DNA from: a virus
Taxonomy: Duplodnaviria; Heunggongvirae; Uroviricota; Caudoviricetes
Virus record (IMG/VR): IMGVR_UViG_2718218131_000009
Coordinates: 1-44,487 of that record
Direction: 5' to 3' (one strand)
DNA length: 44,487 nucleotides
Within the stretch, counting starts at the first letter, position 1, and the number at the start of each line of letters is the position of its first letter. Below the pieces are notes generated by a model, which had not been told where the DNA came from, ran no database searches, and was given only the letters and a program-made list of their open reading frames with translations. Shown piece by piece: positions 21,967-36,899 of the stretch. A program made the position numbers and the translations under genes.

Positions 21967-22202
21967 TAAAACCTCGCCAGTTTAAATCCCGGTTTTCCCC
22001 GCCTGCGGCTCACCATCGCGGCAAGCCTGCGTTCCCACTCCTGACGTCCGGCGCGGATCTGAGAAAGGCTTTCCAGCGTCAGTTGCTGCCCGTTGAAGGT
22101 GACAGACTTTCCCTCCAGTACGGCCATTTCCGCTTCACGGTACCGCTGTATCATTTCTCTGGCTTCTTCTGTGCTCACAACCAGCCTCCTGATGTTATCC
22201 AT
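21966..22202 (-). CDS. Head-tail connector protein (gpW-like)
   Basis: 78 aa, positioned between terminase large subunit and portal. Confidence 0.6.
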   Translation of the reverse strand: MDNIRRLVVSTEEAREMIQRYREAEMAVLEGKSVTFNGQQLTLESLSQIRAGRQEWERRLAAMVSRRRGKPGFKLARF

Positions 22203-24298
22203 GGATTATCTTCCGCACGCTCCGTCCACAGTTTTTTCTTCCGGCGACGGCGTTTTTCTGCCCCGGCCGTCAGTTCCGGGGATACCGTTTCACCAGAACG
22301 CTCCTGCGGGAAGACGAGCCACGTTTCCCGCTGTGCCCAGTCCGGTGCGGAGGGCCAGCGGATCTTTTCGTAACCATGCAGAACGGCAAGCGCATCCGCA
22401 TAAACCAGCAGGTCAAACGCTTCGTTAGCGCCCCTGCCCGGTTTTCGCCATTTTCCGTCACTGCCGCGCTCTTCATAGGTCAGCTCATCGTAAAACCACC
22501 GCCCCAGCCAGTCGGGAAAGTGGATATAGTTCGGCCCTGGTGTGTCACGCCACAGGGCATTATTTACACGATCCTTAAACGCATCCGTCTGAACCAGCCA
22601 CAGCGCGACATCGCCACTGGCTCTGGCACGGCGGGCACTTCTGCCGGTATTATCCGGGAAGGTTCGGTTAATCAGCCTGTCACGGCGAAGTCCATCCCCC
22701 TTGAACAGAAACACCCTGTTGCCCAGTCCGTCACTCCGGCAACGACGCCAGAAACGATAGGCGTTATCTGTCACCCCGGCTTCCCCTCCCGTATCCACCG
22801 CCATGGCCATCAGACGCATGCGCACATCCGGATCAGAAGCCAGCGGCCATGTTTTATGGAACACATCCGTCAGCAACAAATCCCAGTCCTCCGGATATGC
22901 CGCCGGATCAACCGGCAGACTTTCACCGTTGGGACTGCAGCGCAGTGAATGCCGGATGTTGTAGCGATCAACAATCCAGCGTTCCCCCTGCTCTCCGTAT
23001 CCGGTGATCTGCACAACAAAACGGCGATTTTTACCGCCCTGTACGTCAACCGTTGCCTCAATAAAACGCACACCATCCGGCACAGATCGCCGGGGAAACG
23101 GCTCGGCACGCTGTTCAAGCAGTTCACTTTTACGCTGTTCCGTGGCTGAACGGGGAAGATAGGGTCGTCCGATATCGGTGTTCACCACCGCTTTCAGGGT
23201 CTCTTCACTGCCGGTTCGCTCATACTCTTCTTCTGCCGCCAGCAGTTTAAAAATCAGTTGTTCCCAGGTCTGAAACGCCGCAGCTGGCCCCTCCATCCAA
23301 AATGACGCAATCCGGGAGTTTCGTGGCGTTCCGGTGATACTGCCGTCCGCCGCCGCCCGTTCACCTTCACGAAGCCAGATCCCCTGGTTATTCAGTTCGC
23401 GTTTCTGCTCAGGGGCAATCAGCCCGCGACAATGCGGACACATCAGACGGGCAGCCTGACCGGCAGCCACAAAATCCGGGTTATTCCGGTATCCGGTCAT
23501 GTTATCCATCACCGGCTGAAAATATTCCCCGCAGTGCGGACACGGCCAGTACCACCGGCGGCGGTCTCCCCGGTTATACAGTGACAGGATCCCCGTTGTT
23601 GGCGGTGCCTCATGTGCGCCACCACAACGCCATTTGGTATCGGTGATATCCCGCCCCGGTGAACTCTCGACCAGGGTCATCCCCGAGGACATAAAGGTGG
23701 TGGTACGCTTTGAGGCCAGCGTGAAGGCATCCCCTTCCCCGTCCACATTTTCAGGGAAACGGTCATAATCCGTCAGCGCCACACGACGGTAATCCGAAGA
23801 GGAAAAGACGGTGATCGACGGCCAGCCAATCTTCAGGAAGGAGCCGTCAAGAAACATTTTATCGTGGACGTTGTTGTCATTACGGGAAGGACTGAGGCGC
23901 TTGCTGACCTCCGGACTGTGGCGAAACGTCCTGGAAAGACGCGTTCTGGAATGCTCACGCGCCTTCGTCTCAGTCATCTGCACCACCAGCATATCCGCCG
24001 GATCACAGATGATGCCGTACACAATCCAGCCATCAATCAGCCCTTCGGTTTTCCCGGTTCGCGCAGGTCCCACAAACACCACCGCGTCATATTCACGGGC
24101 TGATAATGTATTAATGGGGTCAATCATATAGGGCGTCAGCGATGACTCCCACGGACCGGAAGTATTGGCTCCCCGTGGAACCCGCATATAACGCCTGATG
24201 GCTTCCGCTACTGGTAACCGGCTGGGTGGGCGAAACAGCGAGGCCACTTCGCGCCAGATATCGGATGCGCGGCTATGGCTCTCGTTCACCTGATTCAC
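22175..24298 (-). CDS. Terminase large subunit
   Basis: 707 aa, gpA-like, with ATPase and nuclease regions, adjacent to the small subunit. Confidence 0.9.
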   Translation of the reverse strand: MNQVNESHSRASDIWREVASLFRPPSRLPVAEAIRRYMRVPRGANTSGPWESSLTPYMIDPINTLSAREYDAVVFVGPARTGKTEGLIDGWIVYGIICDPADMLVVQMTETKAREHSRTRLSRTFRHSPEVSKRLSPSRNDNNVHDKMFLDGSFLKIGWPSITVFSSSDYRRVALTDYDRFPENVDGEGDAFTLASKRTTTFMSSGMTLVESSPGRDITDTKWRCGGAHEAPPTTGILSLYNRGDRRRWYWPCPHCGEYFQPVMDNMTGYRNNPDFVAAGQAARLMCPHCRGLIAPEQKRELNNQGIWLREGERAAADGSITGTPRNSRIASFWMEGPAAAFQTWEQLIFKLLAAEEEYERTGSEETLKAVVNTDIGRPYLPRSATEQRKSELLEQRAEPFPRRSVPDGVRFIEATVDVQGGKNRRFVVQITGYGEQGERWIVDRYNIRHSLRCSPNGESLPVDPAAYPEDWDLLLTDVFHKTWPLASDPDVRMRLMAMAVDTGGEAGVTDNAYRFWRRCRSDGLGNRVFLFKGDGLRRDRLINRTFPDNTGRSARRARASGDVALWLVQTDAFKDRVNNALWRDTPGPNYIHFPDWLGRWFYDELTYEERGSDGKWRKPGRGANEAFDLLVYADALAVLHGYEKIRWPSAPDWAQRETWLVFPQERSGETVSPELTAGAEKRRRRKKKLWTERAEDNPWITSGGWL

Positions 24299-25185: not shown

Positions 25186-25668
25186 TTAGTTCAGGCACTG
25201 AGTGCGGATATAGTCCTGTGCCCCTTCCAGCTGCTTCTGCATTGTCATCAACCGTTCTCTGAGGATGAAATAATCCCGTTCAGCGGTGTCTGCCAGTCGG
25301 GGGCTGGTTGCATTATCCACGCTGGTGGGTCCGGTGGCTTCACGCACGGCTGCGGAGCAACTGGCATTGACCCGCAGGCGCTTACGACCAGCGGCAACAT
25401 CAGCGCGCAGAGTTTCATTTTCAGCTTTCGCATTGGCTAATTCTCTCGAGTACTTTGCATCGAGCGCAGCAACATCACGCTGACGCTGTTGCATGTCAGC
25501 GATGGTGGCAGTCGCCTGCTTCAGCTCACTGACTTTTTTATCACGCTGTTCTTTGTAGGCGATGGCGTTATCACGGTAATGATTGACCGCCCACGACAGG
25601 CAGACGATGGTGCAGATAACCAGAGTATAAATAATCGCTGCGACTCTGCTCACTGATCTATCCCCCAA
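25186..25668 (-). CDS. i-spanin Rz
   Basis: N-terminal transmembrane segment and coiled-coil periplasmic domain. The Rz1 ORF is embedded in the +1 frame. Confidence 0.85.
25248..25433 (-). CDS. o-spanin Rz1 (lipoprotein)
   Basis: Embedded in Rz. Lipobox VVSAC and Pro-rich mature region. Confidence 0.8.
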
Positions 25669-26183
25669 CAGGCTAATGCACTTTCCTGGTCACGACGAAT
25701 AACCTGTCCATAGCAGTTATTTGAACGTATGCGGCAATCGCGCCCACCATCTTTTATCCACCAGCGAATCGCCTCGCATGCACCTTTACGATCACCAGCA
25801 TTCAGCCGCTTATAAAACGTCGACGGGAAACACTTACCGGGGCCAATGTTATAGGGACAAAATGACGCTATACCCGCTTTCTGTGGTTCGGTCAGTGGTA
25901 CTTTAATATTGCGCTCCACCCATGCCAGCGCCTTATCACGTTCAATAGCGTTAACCTGGTCGCATTTTTCCTTCGACAGCTTCATTCCCGGTATGACGGG
26001 CTTTCCATCCACCATTGTGGCACCACGACAGATGGTCCAGATGCCGGAACCATCGCGGTATGCCGTGGTATGGTTACCTTCCTTTTCATTCAGAAACTGG
26101 TCGAGAATATCAGGCGCGGGCGCACCGACGGCAATCAGTGCCAGAACGGCAGCCGACAGGCCGTATCTGATTTTTGCGTTCAT
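25650..26183 (-). CDS. SAR endolysin (T4-lysozyme family)
   Basis: Catalytic E-x8-D-x5-T triad ([16 protein letters not shown]) preceded by a weakly hydrophobic Gly/Ala-rich signal-anchor-release segment. Confidence 0.9.
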
Positions 26184-26246
26184 GGATATTTATCAGGATT
26201 TATCGGTTTCTGCCCACGGACAGGTTTATCTGTTCCGGTCAGTGAC

Positions 26247-26597
26247 TTAAGGTTGTGATTCCGGAGGAGTCTTCAGAGAACCAGTAATTCTTCCCGGTAG
26301 CTTTCCTTTGTAGGTTATCCATACATTCTGCGCCTCTAAAATTATGGGGCGCTTTTCCGGTGACTGCTCATCCCCTTCACATAACCCGGCAGCAACATCC
26401 AGGAAGACCTGTCTGATGCTCCTTCTGGCTGCTGCCTCATAAAACTCCAGCGCGGCACCTTCAACACGGTCCAGCGAGATGTCCAGGTCAAAAATTTCAC
26501 CGTCAAAGCGTTTTTTGTCCCGTAACGCTAAAGTTACCGTAACTTTATTCTCAAAATTGCGGATCCCTTTCACAATCACTTTATAGTTTTGAGTCAT
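26247..26597 (-). CDS. YdfR-like (DUF1327) protein within the lysis cassette
   Basis: 116 aa soluble protein between holin and endolysin, the position ydfR occupies in the K-12 Qin prophage. Confidence 0.5.
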   Translation of the reverse strand: MTQNYKVIVKGIRNFENKVTVTLALRDKKRFDGEIFDLDISLDRVEGAALEFYEAAARRSIRQVFLDVAAGLCEGDEQSPEKRPIILEAQNVWITYKGKLPGRITGSLKTPPESQP

Positions 26598-26601
26598 TGA
26601 A

Positions 26602-26817
26602 TTACTCTCCCCGTGCAGCCTTACGCTTGTCTTCTTTAATCTTGAAATAAAGATTTGTCAGATACGTCAGCAGGCCAAACACCAGACTACCCAGCACACC
26701 TATTGCCGCCCACTGTGAGGGCGTGACTTTATCGAGCAACTGTAAAAACCAGTACCCGGCACTACCTGCTGAGGTGCCATAGGCGACACCCGTTGTTAAC
26801 TTATCCATGGATTTCAT
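26602..26817 (-). CDS. Class II pinholin (S21-like)
   Basis: 71 aa. [26 protein letters not shown]... is close to phage 21 S, including the dual-start Met1/Met4 motif. Confidence 0.85.
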
Positions 26818-26884
26818 AACCCCACCTCGCAGATGCGGGTGCTGTGTAATGGAAATAAAAAGGCCACCTGACGTGGCCACCAGA

Positions 26885-27937
26885 TTATTTCCCCACCAGC
26901 TCGTTTATCTCTTTCACTGTCTGGTTAAACCGCTCTGACTCAAGCTCAACACCTAATGCCCGACGCCCCAGCGCCATTGCTGCTTTTATTGTGGAACCGG
27001 ATCCCATAAAAAAATCAGCAACCAGATCACCTGGTCGACTACTGGCATTGATTATTTGCCTGAGCATATCCGCCGGTTTCTCACACGGATGTTTCCCCGG
27101 GTAGAACTGAACGGGTTTATGCATCCAGACATCGGTATAAGGCACGGAGACTGATACGGAGAAATAGCGCCGGAGAGATTTAAACTCATCCAGCAATTCA
27201 GAATATTTACGATTCAGTGAATCATAAGATGCCACCAGCTGGTGGTGTGGTTGTTCCAGTTGTTGTTCCTGAAACTTCTCTGCCGCTATACGGGAAAACA
27301 GTGCCTGTAACTTCCGATAGTCAGCCTCATTCGGCAACTGCCACTGACTGGCACCAAACCAGTGGGAAACCATATTTTTCTTACCTGTGGCTTCGGCAAT
27401 TTGTTTTGCCGTTATACCCAGTTCGGCACGAGCATCCCTGAAATACGATATCAGCGGTGCCATTATGTGCTGTTTGAGTTCCCTTTCTTTTGCTGCATAG
27501 CCGTCACTTTTGCCGCGATATGGCCCCTGGTAATGTTCAGCAAACAGAACGCGCTCTGTGGCAGGAAAATATGCACGCAGACTTTCTTTATTACACCCAT
27601 TCCAACGTCCGGACGGCTTCGCCCAGATGATATGGTTAAGCACGTTGAAACGTTCACGCATCATGATCTCAATATCAGATGCCAGGCGATGCCCACAGAA
27701 CAGGTAAAGGCTTCCGGCAGGTTTTAACACCCGCCAGAACTGGGCCAGACAGTGGTCCAGCCACTTAAGGTAATCTTCGTCCCCTTTCCACTGATTGTCC
27801 CAGCCGTTGGGTTTCACCTTGAAGTACGGCGGATCGGTAACAATCAGGTCAATGGAATCATCAGGCAGGGACTGAATAAAATGCAGGCAATCAGCGTTGA
27901 TTAAATCAACACTGTTTATTTTTACAGTATTTTTCAT
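26885..27937 (-). CDS. DNA methyltransferase (beta-class N6-adenine/N4-cytosine), orphan
   Basis: Motif IV DPPY near the N-terminus and motif I FMGSGST near the C-terminus. No adjacent restriction endonuclease gene. Confidence 0.85.
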
Positions 27938-28087: not shown

Positions 28088-28315
28088 TTACTGGCAGCGT
28101 CTGAATTTATTCCCGTACCCGCCGTTATCCTTCGCCAGACCCGCCAGAACTAACTGAGTCAGTATTAACTGGCACCGGGCTTCGCTTACTCCGGTAGTTC
28201 TCGTCATCATGCGTGGCGTTACCCACTTGTCAGCAGGTAAGAAATGAAGGACTGCGGCGGCGGTTTCTGTCATATCTTGCTGTTTTAGCATGTCTTTTTC
28301 CCTTCTGGTTAACAT
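28088..28315 (-). CDS. Hypothetical small protein
   Basis: 75-aa ORF between the methyltransferase and the Q-proximal region. No recognised motif. Confidence 0.4.
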   Translation of the reverse strand: MLTRREKDMLKQQDMTETAAAVLHFLPADKWVTPRMMTRTTGVSEARCQLILTQLVLAGLAKDNGGYGNKFRRCQ

Positions 28316-28561
28316 GACATACCAATAACTCTTGTCTAAAAAGCCAGCAAGATAAAAGGTCAGTATTCACGACCACCAGCGTGTTTACTGTACTGCACCA
28401 AGTTTACAGGTACAAAAAAACCGCTCAGCGGCGGGTTTAAGTTGTGTGGCGAAGTAACCACTCTTAACAGCATATTTGATTTTTTACGATTGTAAACGGT
28501 TGATTATTCATCTCCAATAAAAATAATTGTGTAGGTATGCCCTTAACAATGGATAAGAAAC

Positions 28562-29008
28562 ATGAATAAAATGACTGTACTATTACTTAGCGCAACTATC
28601 ATTTCAGGTTGTACTTCTTCCGTACCATTGATAAAAAAAACTCAATCAGGAAAACCTGAGGGGGTTTATCAAAATACGACAAAAGATAAAGTCAAAGATG
28701 CCCTTGTGAATTACTGCAATAGTAGAGGGTTGATAATTTACAACGCTGATAACAGCAGTGTTATATGTGGTAAAGAACTGGAAGGCGGGTCTGCTGTTTT
28801 TGGACAAATGTTAATCGGCAATGCCTATTCAACAACCCCGGTATCAAAAGTCAGATTTACTATCGCTCAAGTTAATAACGATACAAAAGTGTGGGCCGAT
28901 ATGTGGATGGAAACTCAAATGGCAATGGGGCAAGTACAACAAATGGCTATAACAGACAACGCAAGCAAAAACACTATCCAACAACGTCTTGATGAATTAA
29001 AACCTTAA
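28562..29008 (+). CDS. Lipoprotein (moron)
   Basis: Signal peptide with lipobox ISGC. AT-rich, on the strand opposite to the late operon, followed by a hairpin terminator. Confidence 0.7.
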   Translation: MNKMTVLLLSATIISGCTSSVPLIKKTQSGKPEGVYQNTTKDKVKDALVNYCNSRGLIIYNADNSSVICGKELEGGSAVFGQMLIGNAYSTTPVSKVRFTIAQVNNDTKVWADMWMETQMAMGQVQQMAITDNASKNTIQQRLDELKP

Positions 29009-29028: not shown

Positions 29029-29050
29029 GGGGAGAATAAATCGACTCCCC
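29029..29050. terminator. Hairpin terminator between the lipoprotein gene and Q
   Basis: GGGGAG-n10-CTCCCC stem with a U-rich tract on the minus strand and a weaker one on the plus strand. Confidence 0.45.
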
Positions 29051-29092: not shown

Positions 29093-29473
29093 CTAACGAT
29101 CCATCTCTAGCTCAATTTCTAACATCATTAACATGCCATCAACTACACCTTCAGCCTTTTGCAATAAACGCCCAACCCAGCAATCAGAACGCCCATGTTT
29201 ACGGGCAAGCGCCATAAACGTCATACCACCTACATAATAATCCACTAATAAATCGTGCAAATCGCTGTTGTTCTTTTTCAGGCGAGCCATGCACCCACAA
29301 ATGATCATCGCATCATCGTCACAACATTGCGGGCGGGATTTTACTTTTGAAGGGATTAGTCCTTTAAATCCTGCAGCAATAGACGACCAGGTGACATCCT
29401 CGTGATTATTTGCCACCCATGCCCCCCAACGTTCAAGAACCATTTGAATATCACGCATCAACGTTCTCCACAA
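29093..29473 (-). CDS. Late-gene antiterminator Q (phage 82/21 type)
   Basis: [14 protein letters not shown]...[18 protein letters not shown] matches the QuuD-type Q family. Located upstream of the lysis genes. Confidence 0.8.
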
Positions 29474-29475
29474 AA

Positions 29476-30471
29476 TCAGGCCAGTACGCCAATTGCCAGC
29501 GCACGATCGATAAAACGAAATATCAGCTCCAGCTGGGAGCCATACTTCTCTTCAAATGCCACGGTATCCGCATGCAGCTCGTCGTGATGCTTTCTGCACA
29601 AAGGCAACACAAAGAGGTCATGCGCTTTTGTACCCATTCCACCCTGACCGTGGCCTATCAGGTGGTGGGGATCATCAGCAGGCTTTCCACAACATGCACA
29701 CGGCTGTGTCTTAACCCAGCGCGTGTACTTTTCATTAACCCAGCGGCGGCGTTTTGGGCGTAACATAAAAGACTCCGGCGACTCCGGATCCACTTTCAGC
29801 GCCAGCACCTTTTTTGCCTTATCCTGGATGATGCTGGTGGCAGGAACCGAAGGCACAAGGTCACTTTCCCGGGTGACAGACGGCACAACAGGCTTTGGTA
29901 ATCTCAGTGCCTTACGGGCTGCACTTTCCGGTAAGGCATCCGCTAGGTCATTACGAATCAGCCACCAGCACAGTTCCGGCATTGTCACAACGTGACTATC
30001 ATCAAAACCGAGATCCCGACGCACAACAGACAACACCCAGCGGGCACAGTTATCCGTTGCCATTGATTCCAGCCGTTCCGTGAACTGATCGCGCAGCTGG
30101 TTATCGCAGTGCCAGCACAGACGGATTGCGCCCGGAGCGTGTCGCATTGTGGTCATGTTCTCGCTGTGCCAGTCGGAATGAGGCCACTGGCAGCCTTTTT
30201 CACGACGTAACCAGCTTTCAAGACATTCCACGCCACCAGCACGACGGATCACTGCCTCATTGCGGAACACGGCCCGAACGGCAGGATCATCCGCCAGCGG
30301 TTGTGATGCCGCCGGAACGGCACCACTGGCGAAAGATGAATAACGTTCCGGCTCAGGCTCCAGCAGAACACGCCCCTGCATAAACAGGGGCATCAGCTCT
30401 GAACCTGGCCTGAACAATACGATCCCCATACGCGGGGCAATTTCAGGGGTCAGTAGTGCTCTCACGGTCAC
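29476..30471 (-). CDS. DUF968/HNH-like protein
   Basis: C-terminal CACCGKP...[10 protein letters not shown]...CRKHHDELH Cys/His motif. Confidence 0.7.
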
Positions 30472-31301: not shown

Positions 31302-31691
31302 TCAGGCGGCTGCACCCGCCGGTTTCTCATACTTACTGATAGTGATCTCGACCTTCCCTTTCTGGATAACCGGTCCCCACTCCACCAGCATTCTTTTCAC
31401 CTGGCTGTCGTCTTCCCACACCCCCGCGTGGGTCAGGGCGTCAAACAGCGCCTTGTTATAGTTGTCCAGATCGCGGATCCGGTTATCCGGAGGAAACAAC
31501 ACGATCTCCACTGAAGCAGGTGCCGACGTTGGTTTTGGCAGACGACGTAACTGCTCAACTATTGCTGCGCACGCCGCGCTCTGGAATTTGCGCCCCGCCG
31601 CGCTTATCAGGCTTTTACCAGCAAACGCCCCTTTATTAGGGTGTCGCCAGTACGTATTCACGCTGGGCGGGAAAGGTAGGATCAGTTTCAT
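31302..31691 (-). CDS. rusA: Holliday junction resolvase RusA
   Basis: MKLILPFPPSVNTYW... with a conserved acidic catalytic region. Confidence 0.9.
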   Translation of the reverse strand: MKLILPFPPSVNTYWRHPNKGAFAGKSLISAAGRKFQSAACAAIVEQLRRLPKPTSAPASVEIVLFPPDNRIRDLDNYNKALFDALTHAGVWEDDSQVKRMLVEWGPVIQKGKVEITISKYEKPAGAAA

Positions 31692-32014
31692 ACTTTCAGG
31701 CCTCTCTCATGTAACCAGTGGGTTGCACGCAGCCTGGCGTTTTCCTCACCGGCAAGCAGTGAGCGGATAATCCCGACCGCCTCGCTGTCGTCGTCCTTCA
31801 CCGCGGTATGAAGCGTTATCCCCCGGGCCACGCCACGCTTTATCGTGATGACGCCTTTTTTCTCCAGTGCGCGAAGATGCTCCACCGCTGCATTCACTGA
31901 ACGGTATCCCAGCATGGTTGCCACCTCCTGATTGGTTGGCGGGAAGCCACGTTCTTTCTGGTAAGAAATCAGCATATCCAGCACCTGCTGCTGGCATTGA
32001 GTTAACGTCGTCAT
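31688..32014 (-). CDS. LexA N-terminal DNA-binding-domain homolog (no peptidase domain)
   Basis: QQQVLDMLISYQKERGFPPTNQEVATMLGYRSVNAAVEHLRALEKKGVI parallels the LexA winged-helix domain (QQEVFDLIRDH...[32 protein letters not shown]). It is 108 aa and lacks the S24 cleavage domain. Confidence 0.75.
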   Translation of the reverse strand: MTTLTQCQQQVLDMLISYQKERGFPPTNQEVATMLGYRSVNAAVEHLRALEKKGVITIKRGVARGITLHTAVKDDDSEAVGIIRSLLAGEENARLRATHWLHERGLKV

Positions 32015-32664
32015 GCCGCCATCTCCCTGACCAGTTTTTCCGCCTGCTGGCGAACCTGCACCAGAAAGGCTTCACCACATGCCTCAAGTTCATCGCGCCC
32101 GATGTAGCTGATTGCCGGTCCCTTCCAGGTCTTGTCGAAAACAGCAATAGCACCAGCGAAGAAAGCGCCTGTCGGCACCTGCTTCTCATCCTTCGGGATA
32201 AACCAGGCAGGCAGTTCAAAACCAATACGCCCGCGAATAAAAGCAATATGGTCCGCATCTTCCGGCCACCACACTTCGCTGGTGGCAGCTTTGATCAGGA
32301 AAACATAGCGCCCGCCCTTATCACGCATGGCACTGGCATGTTTCATGATGTAACGCATGCCGGTGATGTATTGCCCCTCATGCTGACTGGCGCGGCTGTA
32401 TGGGGGATTACCAAAGGCAGCACCTTTAAGCTCCGCAAGACGTTCTGACCAGTCATGCGCCAGCGCGTTATCTTCCGCCGTGTAATACGCGGCACATTTG
32501 GCGTTATCACCGTCAGTAAACAGATCCAGAACAAACGGGCCAAACAGGGTGTTAATTCCCCAGAAAATGTTGTCCGGCGTGCGCCACTGATCGCCCACTT
32601 CCTTCAGTTCATGGGCTGGTTTGTTCCGCAGTTCCACCAGCGCCTGGCAATATTTATTACTCAT
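32011..32664 (-). CDS. Phage Dam-family N6-adenine methyltransferase
   Basis: WRTPDNIF... and FGNPPYS (NPPY) motifs. Start probably MSNKYCQ at 32664; the track start at 32697 overlaps the upstream gene. Confidence 0.85.
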   Translation of the reverse strand: MSNKYCQALVELRNKPAHELKEVGDQWRTPDNIFWGINTLFGPFVLDLFTDGDNAKCAAYYTAEDNALAHDWSERLAELKGAAFGNPPYSRASQHEGQYITGMRYIMKHASAMRDKGGRYVFLIKAATSEVWWPEDADHIAFIRGRIGFELPAWFIPKDEKQVPTGAFFAGAIAVFDKTWKGPAISYIGRDELEACGEAFLVQVRQQAEKLVREMAA

Positions 32665-33158
32665 TAAGCCCCCACGTAATTCCCTGACAGATACCACTCT
32701 TCACCCGATGCAGCGCGCTTGCTGCTTTTCCGTAAGCACCGCTCACGACGCGCCAGAAAATTGTTTCGTTCTGGCTGGGAGTGGCTTTCACGGAATGCCG
32801 CCATCCACACGGTTGCAGCACGACGGTATAAGCCCCTGGACTCCAGTTCTTCAGCCTGGCGGGTCAGGCACAAAATCACCCGTGGATCGTTAGTGCCGAC
32901 ATAGAAATTGCGCACAGGTCTGGTTTCTCGAACTGGTTGTGGTTCCGGTTCCTGCGCTCTCTCAGTCAGGCGCGGGAAATGTCTGCGTGTATCTCCTTCA
33001 CAACGGTGAGCCACACGCCCACTCTGACGTAACTTGCTTGCTGACTGCAGAACGCGCTGCCGTGAGTAACCTGCAAAAGCATCCGCAATGTCTCCGGAAG
33101 TACACCCCGGATGGGCTTCAATGAATTTCTGAACTTCATTCAAAAGACTCATGATCAC
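32664..33158 (-). CDS. PerC-family-like regulator with N-terminal extension
   Basis: The C-terminal region EELESRGLYRRAATVWMAAF matches the PerC/Pch signature (ELEskGLWRRAA..W). Confidence 0.6.
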   Translation of the reverse strand: MIMSLLNEVQKFIEAHPGCTSGDIADAFAGYSRQRVLQSASKLRQSGRVAHRCEGDTRRHFPRLTERAQEPEPQPVRETRPVRNFYVGTNDPRVILCLTRQAEELESRGLYRRAATVWMAAFRESHSQPERNNFLARRERCLRKSSKRAASGEEWYLSGNYVGA

Positions 33159-36224: not shown

Positions 36225-36899
36225 ATGAAAACAGTCCATGACATCCGGCGGTCTAACGCCAGAAAACTGAGAGATGGTGTTGGCGGGAATTCTTCCTTTG
36301 CCACCATGATTGATCGCGAGCCAACCCAGACCAGCAGGTTTATGGGAGATGGTGCTACTAAAAATATCGGTGACAGCATGGCACGGCACATCGAAAAATG
36401 TTTCGACCTGCCTGTCGGATGGCTTGATCAAGAACACCAGACAACAAACATCACAAAAAAACCTGATGTTTCAATTACTAACAAACAAATAACGTTAGTC
36501 CCTGTCATATCATGGGTACAGGCCGGAGCATGGAAAGAAGTTGGCTATTCTGAGGTTGATTTGAGCACAGCAGAAACGTATCCCTGCCCTGTACCCTGTG
36601 GCGAAATGACTTATATCTTGCGGGTGATTGGTGATTCAATGATTGATGAGTACCGCCCGGGAGACATGATTTTTGTAGATCCTGAAGTCCCTGCCTGCCA
36701 CGGTGACGACGTTATTGCATTGATGCACGATTCAGGCGAAACCACCTTCAAGCGGTTGATAGAAGATGGAACACAGCGTTATCTCAAAGCATTAAACCCA
36801 AACTGGCCTGAGCCTTACATTAAGATTAACGGTAATTGCTCTATAATTGGTACAGTGATTTTCTCGGGAAAACCAAGAAGATACACAATAAAGGCCTAA
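36225..36899 (+). CDS. CI-type repressor (HTH plus S24 LexA-like peptidase domain)
   Basis: C-terminal VIGDSM Ser nucleophile and TFKRL Lys. N-terminal HTH ending in PVGWL. Confidence 0.85.
   Translation: MKTVHDIRRSNARKLRDGVGGNSSFATMIDREPTQTSRFMGDGATKNIGDSMARHIEKCFDLPVGWLDQEHQTTNITKKPDVSITNKQITLVPVISWVQAGAWKEVGYSEVDLSTAETYPCPVPCGEMTYILRVIGDSMIDEYRPGDMIFVDPEVPACHGDDVIALMHDSGETTFKRLIEDGTQRYLKALNPNWPEPYIKINGNCSIIGTVIFSGKPRRYTIKA

Follow-up and report, generated by a model that had tools for sequence, protein, structure and literature searches.

A lambda-like Escherichia coli prophage with two solitary adenine methyltransferase genes, probably expressed at different times

Enzymes of the M.EcoGII family already serve as a commercial reagent and as a chromatin-footprinting tool, and M.EcoGII itself is active when cloned alone. 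Together with M.EcoGI it comes from E. coli O104:H4 C227-11; it methylates adenine in any sequence context, is borne by a prophage, is unexpressed in its native strain and is harmful to cells under constitutive expression, and very similar enzymes were reported from phage 1720a-02 and other enterobacterial phages (PMC5778455). It has been described as "silent except during phage development" (PMC7736820, PMC12707154). The locus described here lies in IMG/VR record IMGVR_UViG_2718218131_000009 (positions 1 to 44,487), and "the window" denotes this whole stretch of 44,487 nucleotides, a lambda-like E. coli prophage with genes mostly on the minus strand. The reading that we consider likely is that this prophage has two solitary adenine-N6 methyltransferases, a late one of M.EcoGII type and an early one of the PF05869 family, probably expressed at different times. 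The two genes are as follows.

26885-27937, minus strand: late methyltransferase, a beta-class N6-adenine DNA methyltransferase of the M.EcoGII family, 350 residues (PF01555, PADLOC, motifs, identity)
32011-32664, minus strand: early methyltransferase, a phage N-6-adenine-methyltransferase of the PF05869/TIGR01712 family, with NPPY, 217 residues

Both genes had been picked out in an earlier sequence-only reading of the window, and both proved to be real and intact. The open reading frame (ORF) of the late gene matches PF01555 (N6_N4_Mtase, E=2e-42) over profile positions 1-220 of 221, and in its protein DPPY (residue 35) precedes FMGSG (residue 310), the motif order of the beta class, to which it had been assigned. 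It also matches the PADLOC MTase_II model PDLC03265 with 505 bits; the full-length PADLOC hits (PDLC03263, PDLC03265) reflect the use of near-identical sequences in building the "MTase_II" models and are uninformative on specificity. The DNA of the gene is 99.7% identical to that of phage Ayreon and 99.2% to that of mEp460. At the protein level the methylase of phage cdtI is a perfect match (100% identity), and SfV orf48 is 98% identical. From end to end the late protein shares 80.7% of its residues with M.EcoGII, and within the recognition region (residues 160-237) 76.9%; the corresponding values for the reconstructed ancestor Anc291 are 89.6% and 85.9%, and identity to Anc289 is 87.5%. The values for M.EcoGII and the ancestors are lower bounds, because these reference sequences were machine-read with small errors. 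Judged by its sequence the protein is a member of the M.EcoGII family, and by homology it would methylate adenines in essentially any sequence context; the automatic label "site-specific DNA-methyltransferase" carried by the gene is probably wrong.

Phage 1720a-02 has a methyltransferase that shares 93% identity with M.EcoGII and 81% with the late protein of the window. In that phage the genes follow the order of the window, with the early methyltransferase, a LexA-like gene, RusA, a hypothetical gene (KilA-N in the window), DUF968 and Q, and after Q come a small ORF, the late methyltransferase and stx2. As both gene order and similarity match, the late gene of the window is one allele of the M.EcoGII locus in lambdoid phages.

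The early protein matches PF05869 ("Dam") with E=1e-45 and 156 bits (cut-off 28.1) and the equivalog TIGR01712 (phage_N6A_met) with 255.6 bits (cut-off 97.05). It has NPPY at residue 86 and a Rossmann-type fold like that of adenine-N6 methyltransferases, and no related solved structure was detectable by sequence. Its assignment as an adenine-N6 methyltransferase is well supported. The sequence-only reading had called it Dam-family, which is right in the Pfam sense of PF05869, the family of M.EcoVT2Dam, but not in the sense of the E. coli Dam and T4 Dam family (alpha class, PF02086): a Pfam search at E<=0.01 returned only PF05869, and the protein carries NPPY, not DPPY. EcoDam and T4Dam have no more than the fold in common with it, as their structural alignment covers 106 residues with 8% identity. 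Among 27 aligned sequences from the two PF05869 subfamilies the T-P, L-D, NPPYS and G-R-x-x-F blocks are kept throughout; the subfamily of the window is distinguished by a 10-residue insertion right after NPPYS, by an altered loop following GRIxF and by a long helix at the C-terminus. GATC as the target of this enzyme is a guess, being the default of the family.

That neither gene is accompanied by a cognate restriction enzyme, as had been stated from the sequence, was borne out by three approaches. No restriction-endonuclease domain was found in Pfam scans of 30 window ORFs, a PADLOC scan of 10 ORFs gave no match beyond the two methyltransferases, and the RefSeq annotation (Prokaryotic Genome Annotation Pipeline, PGAP) of the 99%-identical module in strain R11 contains no restriction enzyme. 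The neighbours of the late gene are the holin and a 75-residue ORF, those of the early gene are PerC-like and LexA-like genes, and a type II restriction-modification system was rejected because no restriction endonuclease gene adjoins either methyltransferase. The nucleases that are present, RusA and DUF968/HNHc_6, are conserved lambdoid genes 0.3-1.5 kb away. Among gene-like ORFs of the window the motif [DNS]PP[YFWH] occurs in the two methyltransferases only; three further matches fall in short ORFs overlapping structural genes.

The late gene does lie between Q and the lysis genes, where it had been placed, and the features that bear on its transcription are these.

26602-26817, minus strand: holin, which opens the lysis cassette and has the dual-start motif MKSM (PF04971, E=4e-35)
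26862-26878, minus strand: terminator-like hairpin and T-run, between the stop of the late methyltransferase and the start of the holin
28088-28315, minus strand: small conserved ORF, 75 residues, phrog_331, directly upstream of the late methyltransferase
28413-28432, minus strand: candidate tR' intrinsic terminator, GCCGCTGAGCGGT then T7 (pattern scan, fold)
28469-28496, minus strand: candidate late promoter pR', TTTACA-16-TATGCT (pattern scan)
29093-29473, minus strand: Q, late-gene antiterminator (PF06530 Phage_antitermQ, E=2e-51)

The candidate tR' lies about 30 nucleotides past the candidate pR'. Phages 1720a-02 and Ayreon and strain R11 all retain its hairpin and T-run, with a terminator annotated in the Ayreon record, and the same three conserve the putatively transcribed leader just downstream of the candidate pR'. 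In Ayreon the sequence upstream of the leader differs and the Q gene differs too, as would be expected of a Q-specific pR'/qut unit. There is no convincing promoter directly ahead of the late methyltransferase, which is preceded by an equivalent of the 75-residue ORF in all four cases inspected (the window, Ayreon, 1720a-02 and R11). The hairpin at 26862-26878 folds with -12.2 kcal/mol (z=-2.5) and is annotated as a terminator in Ayreon, and a strong hairpin, then a T-run, also comes after Q at 29031-29050. The simplest reading is that the late methyltransferase belongs to the Q-antiterminated late transcript, so that only cells already bound for lysis would produce it, its position downstream of Q and of the candidate pR'-tR' suggesting that it is silent in the lysogen. 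Such Q-dependent expression fits the reported silence of M.EcoGII in its native strain, its harmfulness and the description quoted at the outset, by which it is active in phage development alone (PMC7736820, PMC12707154).

The early gene does lie in the early region, as had been stated; its neighbours there, in the replication and nin-type part of the early-right region, are the following two genes.

31688-32014, minus strand: LexA DNA-binding-domain-only gene, 108 residues, without peptidase domain (PF01726, E=3e-19)
32664-33158, minus strand: PerC-like (YfdN) gene upstream of the early methyltransferase (PF06069; yfdN in R11)

The stop of the PerC-like gene overlaps the start of the early methyltransferase by 1 nucleotide, and the LexA-like gene follows downstream with an ATGA overlap; as the coding sequence overlaps both neighbours, translational coupling is suggested. 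Judging from annotations, the counterpart of the early gene in CPS-53-type prophages is the yfdM-yfdN region. The LexA-like neighbour was considered as an obligatory partner or specificity subunit, which found no support: it is not kept beside more distant homologs, and at a 70%-identical one in Salmonella phage 118970_sal3 it is absent and RusA is directly next. Database "fusions" of PF05869 with PF01726 and with PF06069 are singletons that match the separate genes at about 100% identity, and are therefore probably gene-calling artefacts.

On the reading that we favour, Q antitermination after induction would allow the late methyltransferase to be transcribed, and only then. The enzyme would heavily methylate the replicated phage DNA shortly before packaging and lysis, so that in the next host the progeny DNA would be protected from many adenine-sensitive restriction systems, while the lysogen would escape the harm that expression of such an enzyme causes. 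The early enzyme, encoded in the replication/nin-type early-right operon, would most likely methylate a short specific site on replicating phage DNA.

Several points weigh against this reading. The timing of expression is based on gene order and on promoter and terminator matches at consensus level only, and the 55-nucleotide leader with the candidate tR' has a minimum free energy of -13.4 kcal/mol at a modest z of -1.7. The late protein differs from M.EcoGII at about 19% of positions, recognition domain included, and the sequences of M.EcoGII and the ancestors used for comparison were machine-read, with small errors, from the PDF of Table S1 of PMC11551740. An anti-restriction role of M.EcoGII-type enzymes in the phage life cycle has been proposed and not demonstrated (PMC5778455, PMC12707154). 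For the early enzyme, the nearest characterised relative verified is M.EcoVT2Dam (VT2-Sakai orf32), a GATC enzyme of 31% identity, from which it is set apart by three insertions or replacements, one of them right after NPPYS; owing to this low identity and the loop differences beside the active site, the specificity of M.EcoVT2Dam is not transferable to it. The 142 GATC sites of the prophage (observed/expected 0.73) amount to a mild depletion similar to that of other palindromes and are uninformative.

It is against this background that other explanations have to be judged. The divergence of about 19% from M.EcoGII could have restored a defined site to the late enzyme, which as a sequence-specific orphan would then write a new motif. 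Some copies are indeed labelled "site-specific DNA-methyltransferase" in RefSeq, no more than 76.9% of the recognition region agrees with M.EcoGII, and as a general point specificity can shift through small recognition-domain changes (PMC6602927). The RefSeq label, however, is an automatic product name, and the window protein is closer to Anc291 (89.6%) than to M.EcoGII. All tested reconstructed ancestors, that is Anc291 and deeper nodes towards the site-specific M.PflMI, methylated both DNA and RNA, and M.EcoGII, Anc291 and SUPREM (Anc284) had no RNA motif (PMC11551740); REBASE-based typing moreover assigns homologs of 92-93% as "nonspecific" (PMC6602927). We regard a site-specific late enzyme as quite unlikely. 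It is very unlikely indeed that one or both enzymes act mainly on RNA, host physiology or prophage induction instead of protecting phage DNA. The model for such a role is M.EcoPA8orf6770P, which is annotated as a GATC Dam-like enzyme and methylates 16S rRNA with a partner subunit; it is MT-A70-like, an identity rejected for the window genes, which belong to PF01555 and PF05869.

The genes might also be inert passengers, intact and never usefully expressed, which persist only through the mobility of their module. Homologs of M.EcoGI and M.EcoGII, and likewise Hia5 and Hin1523, gave no detectable methylation in native strains, which for Hia5 and Hin1523 held even after mitomycin C (PMC5778455, PMC3299994). 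Set against this are the full length of both ORFs with their intact catalytic motifs, the occurrence of homologs in many functional isolated phages (mEp460, Ayreon, cdtI, SfV, phiP27, N15 and PY54 among them) and the abundance of the genes: 1157 of 5426 complete E. coli genomes have the late gene at close to full length, 1013 records have a copy of >=95% nucleotide identity, and each of the two exact proteins is recorded on at least 1000 contigs. That both are mere passengers is, on balance, distinctly improbable. It is unlikely, finally, that the early enzyme represents an uncharacterised PF05869 subfamily with some target other than GATC, perhaps a different short sequence, a relaxed site or a substrate that is not DNA. 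Were its target a site other than GATC, the prophage would have a two-stage programme in which a specific early mark during replication is followed by blanket adenine methylation before packaging. Two solitary methyltransferases, probably expressed at different times and with the late one of the non-specific type, remain the reading that we prefer.

As to function, the sequence-only reading had both enzymes probably protecting phage DNA from host restriction or altering host methylation. Protection is what the literature proposes for M.EcoGII-type enzymes (PMC5778455, PMC12707154), and that orphan methyltransferases aid against restriction is reasonable as a general idea. A change of host methylation by the late enzyme in a lysogen is unlikely, because the M.EcoGII family is reported to be silent in lysogens. 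It had further been suggested that a lysogen with no new methylation motif would speak against the proposal. This test is not valid: it would probably be negative even with both enzymes working, since the late one is predicted to be motif-less and is probably late-expressed, and the early one may duplicate Dam, in which case its GATC methylation would be hidden behind that of the host. Single-molecule real-time (SMRT) sequencing of Shiga toxin-producing E. coli strains with homologs of M.EcoGI/GII and M.EcoVT2Dam did yield no extra attributable motif (PMC6602927). The methylome of a lysogen is thus expected to show neither enzyme, and negative SMRT results on lysogens should not be taken as inactivity of either.

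Both genes are common phage genes which have already been described, and there is nothing new in the genes themselves. The entire 5.8-kb module with both of them is found in 522 of the 5426 complete genomes (~10%), and isolated phages that carry both include PhiR40_1, PhiR55_1, vB_EcoM-720R4, vB_EcoS-569R4, 1720a-02 and Shiga toxin 2c (Stx2c) phages. The DNA of the early gene is 100% identical in Stx2c phages and 98-99% identical in SfII, PhiR40_1 and others. The two are among the commonest prophage genes of E. coli and carry little weight as a discovery; with the module in about 10% of complete genomes, they offer a convenient test bed for the role of these enzymes within a phage and for the specificity of the 217-residue subfamily.

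Some further observations were made on the early gene and its relatives. Several phage records label it "phosphoadenosine phosphosulfate reductase", which is wrong for the 217-residue protein and apparently arises because phrog_33262 is a fusion family with the methyltransferase domain as its C-terminal half (positions 283-492 of 495). Homologs of about 80% identity in Cronobacter, Atlantibacter, Enterobacter and Salmonella have a C-terminal extension of 70-110 residues which the E. coli form does not have; Salmonella phage 118970_sal3 has this long form, with RusA directly after it.

The remainder of the window has the layout of a lambda-like prophage.

4772-6028: tail fibre, with Lom, J and other tail genes beside it in gene order
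22175-24298: head genes and large terminase
25186-26817: lysis cassette, comprising an Rz-like lysis gene, lysozyme, DUF1327 and the holin
36225-36899, plus strand: cI-like repressor

From the lysis cassette the genes run through the late methyltransferase, Q, DUF968, KilA-N, RusA, the LexA-like gene and the early methyltransferase to PerC/YfdN, a replication-initiator-like gene, Rha/Ash and a cII-like gene, and beyond the cI-like repressor there is a plus-strand early-left operon. The start codon of the holin was read from the sequence as the ATG at 26817, which gives a length equal to that of essD of strain R11. Between Q and the lysis genes of the window, where Stx phages have tRNA genes, none were found. 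Antisense between Q and the candidate pR' is a lipoprotein-like ORF (28562-29008, plus strand, 148 residues, phrog_3152, without Pfam match), which looks like a moron, being missing there in 1720a-02 and present in R11. Directly upstream of Q lies the DUF968 protein (29476-30471, minus strand, 331 residues), which has a weak HNHc_6 nuclease match and the same position in Ayreon, 1720a-02 and R11; one phage record labels DUF968 "antitermination protein Q".

Just past the tail-fibre genes, in an AT-rich stretch (GC 0.31-0.37), an ORF of 1134 residues (673-4077, plus strand) matches PF15962 (DUF4765) from end to end. Its DNA is 77% identical to genes labelled "T3SS effector EspN" (type III secretion system) in Stx2a phages, and on account of this similarity it probably encodes an effector that the prophage carries as cargo. 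At the end of the early-left region, a SocA/Panacea antitoxin-domain ORF (43915-44487, minus strand) is interrupted by the end of the window and is followed by a 139-residue ORF without Pfam match (region 43499-44487, minus strand); the two may form a Panacea-type toxin-antitoxin pair. At the corresponding end of the related R11 prophage lies a YafO toxin pair.

When set beside known systems, the two genes resemble different enzymes to different degrees. M.EcoPA8orf6770P / M.EcoGV is likewise encoded by an E. coli prophage and annotated as "DNA adenine methyltransferase", and is an MT-A70-like enzyme of Stx phages which, with PNB-2 as its partner, methylates 16S rRNA (PMC10810198); in the window no ORF contains DPPW. 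Hia5, Hin1523 and Nma1821 are, like the late enzyme as predicted here, near motif-less N6-methyladenine enzymes of phage late regions without a restriction partner. They occupy the mom position of Mu-like prophages, are silent in lysogens and, when expressed, allow many restriction enzymes to be resisted (PMC3299994). They belong, however, to a lineage related to EcoDam/T4Dam, with about 281 residues and DPPY near residue 194, whereas the late enzyme of the window has DPPY at 35, and membership of either gene in the Hia5/Hin1523 group was ruled out by motif order and lineage.

M.EcoVT2Dam, the GATC orphan of Stx2 phages, is akin to the early enzyme in its PF05869 match, its NPPY core and its location in the early-right/nin-type region of a lambdoid phage, and the W-x-T-P, L-D and G-R-I-x-F blocks are conserved between the two, although the window protein is 42 residues longer and differs in the loop after GRIxF and in the C-terminal helix. 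The closest parallel for the late enzyme is M.EcoGII. The allele of the window is of the cdtI / mEp460 / SfV / Ayreon type, and 23% of its recognition-region residues differ from those of M.EcoGII. The two nevertheless have almost the same length (350 residues in the window, 349 in M.EcoGII) and about 81% identity from end to end, share the order of DPPY, central recognition domain and FxGxG, and are both prophage-borne without a restriction partner, and the 93%-identical relative of M.EcoGII in 1720a-02 occupies the same slot, from Q to the lysis/stx region.
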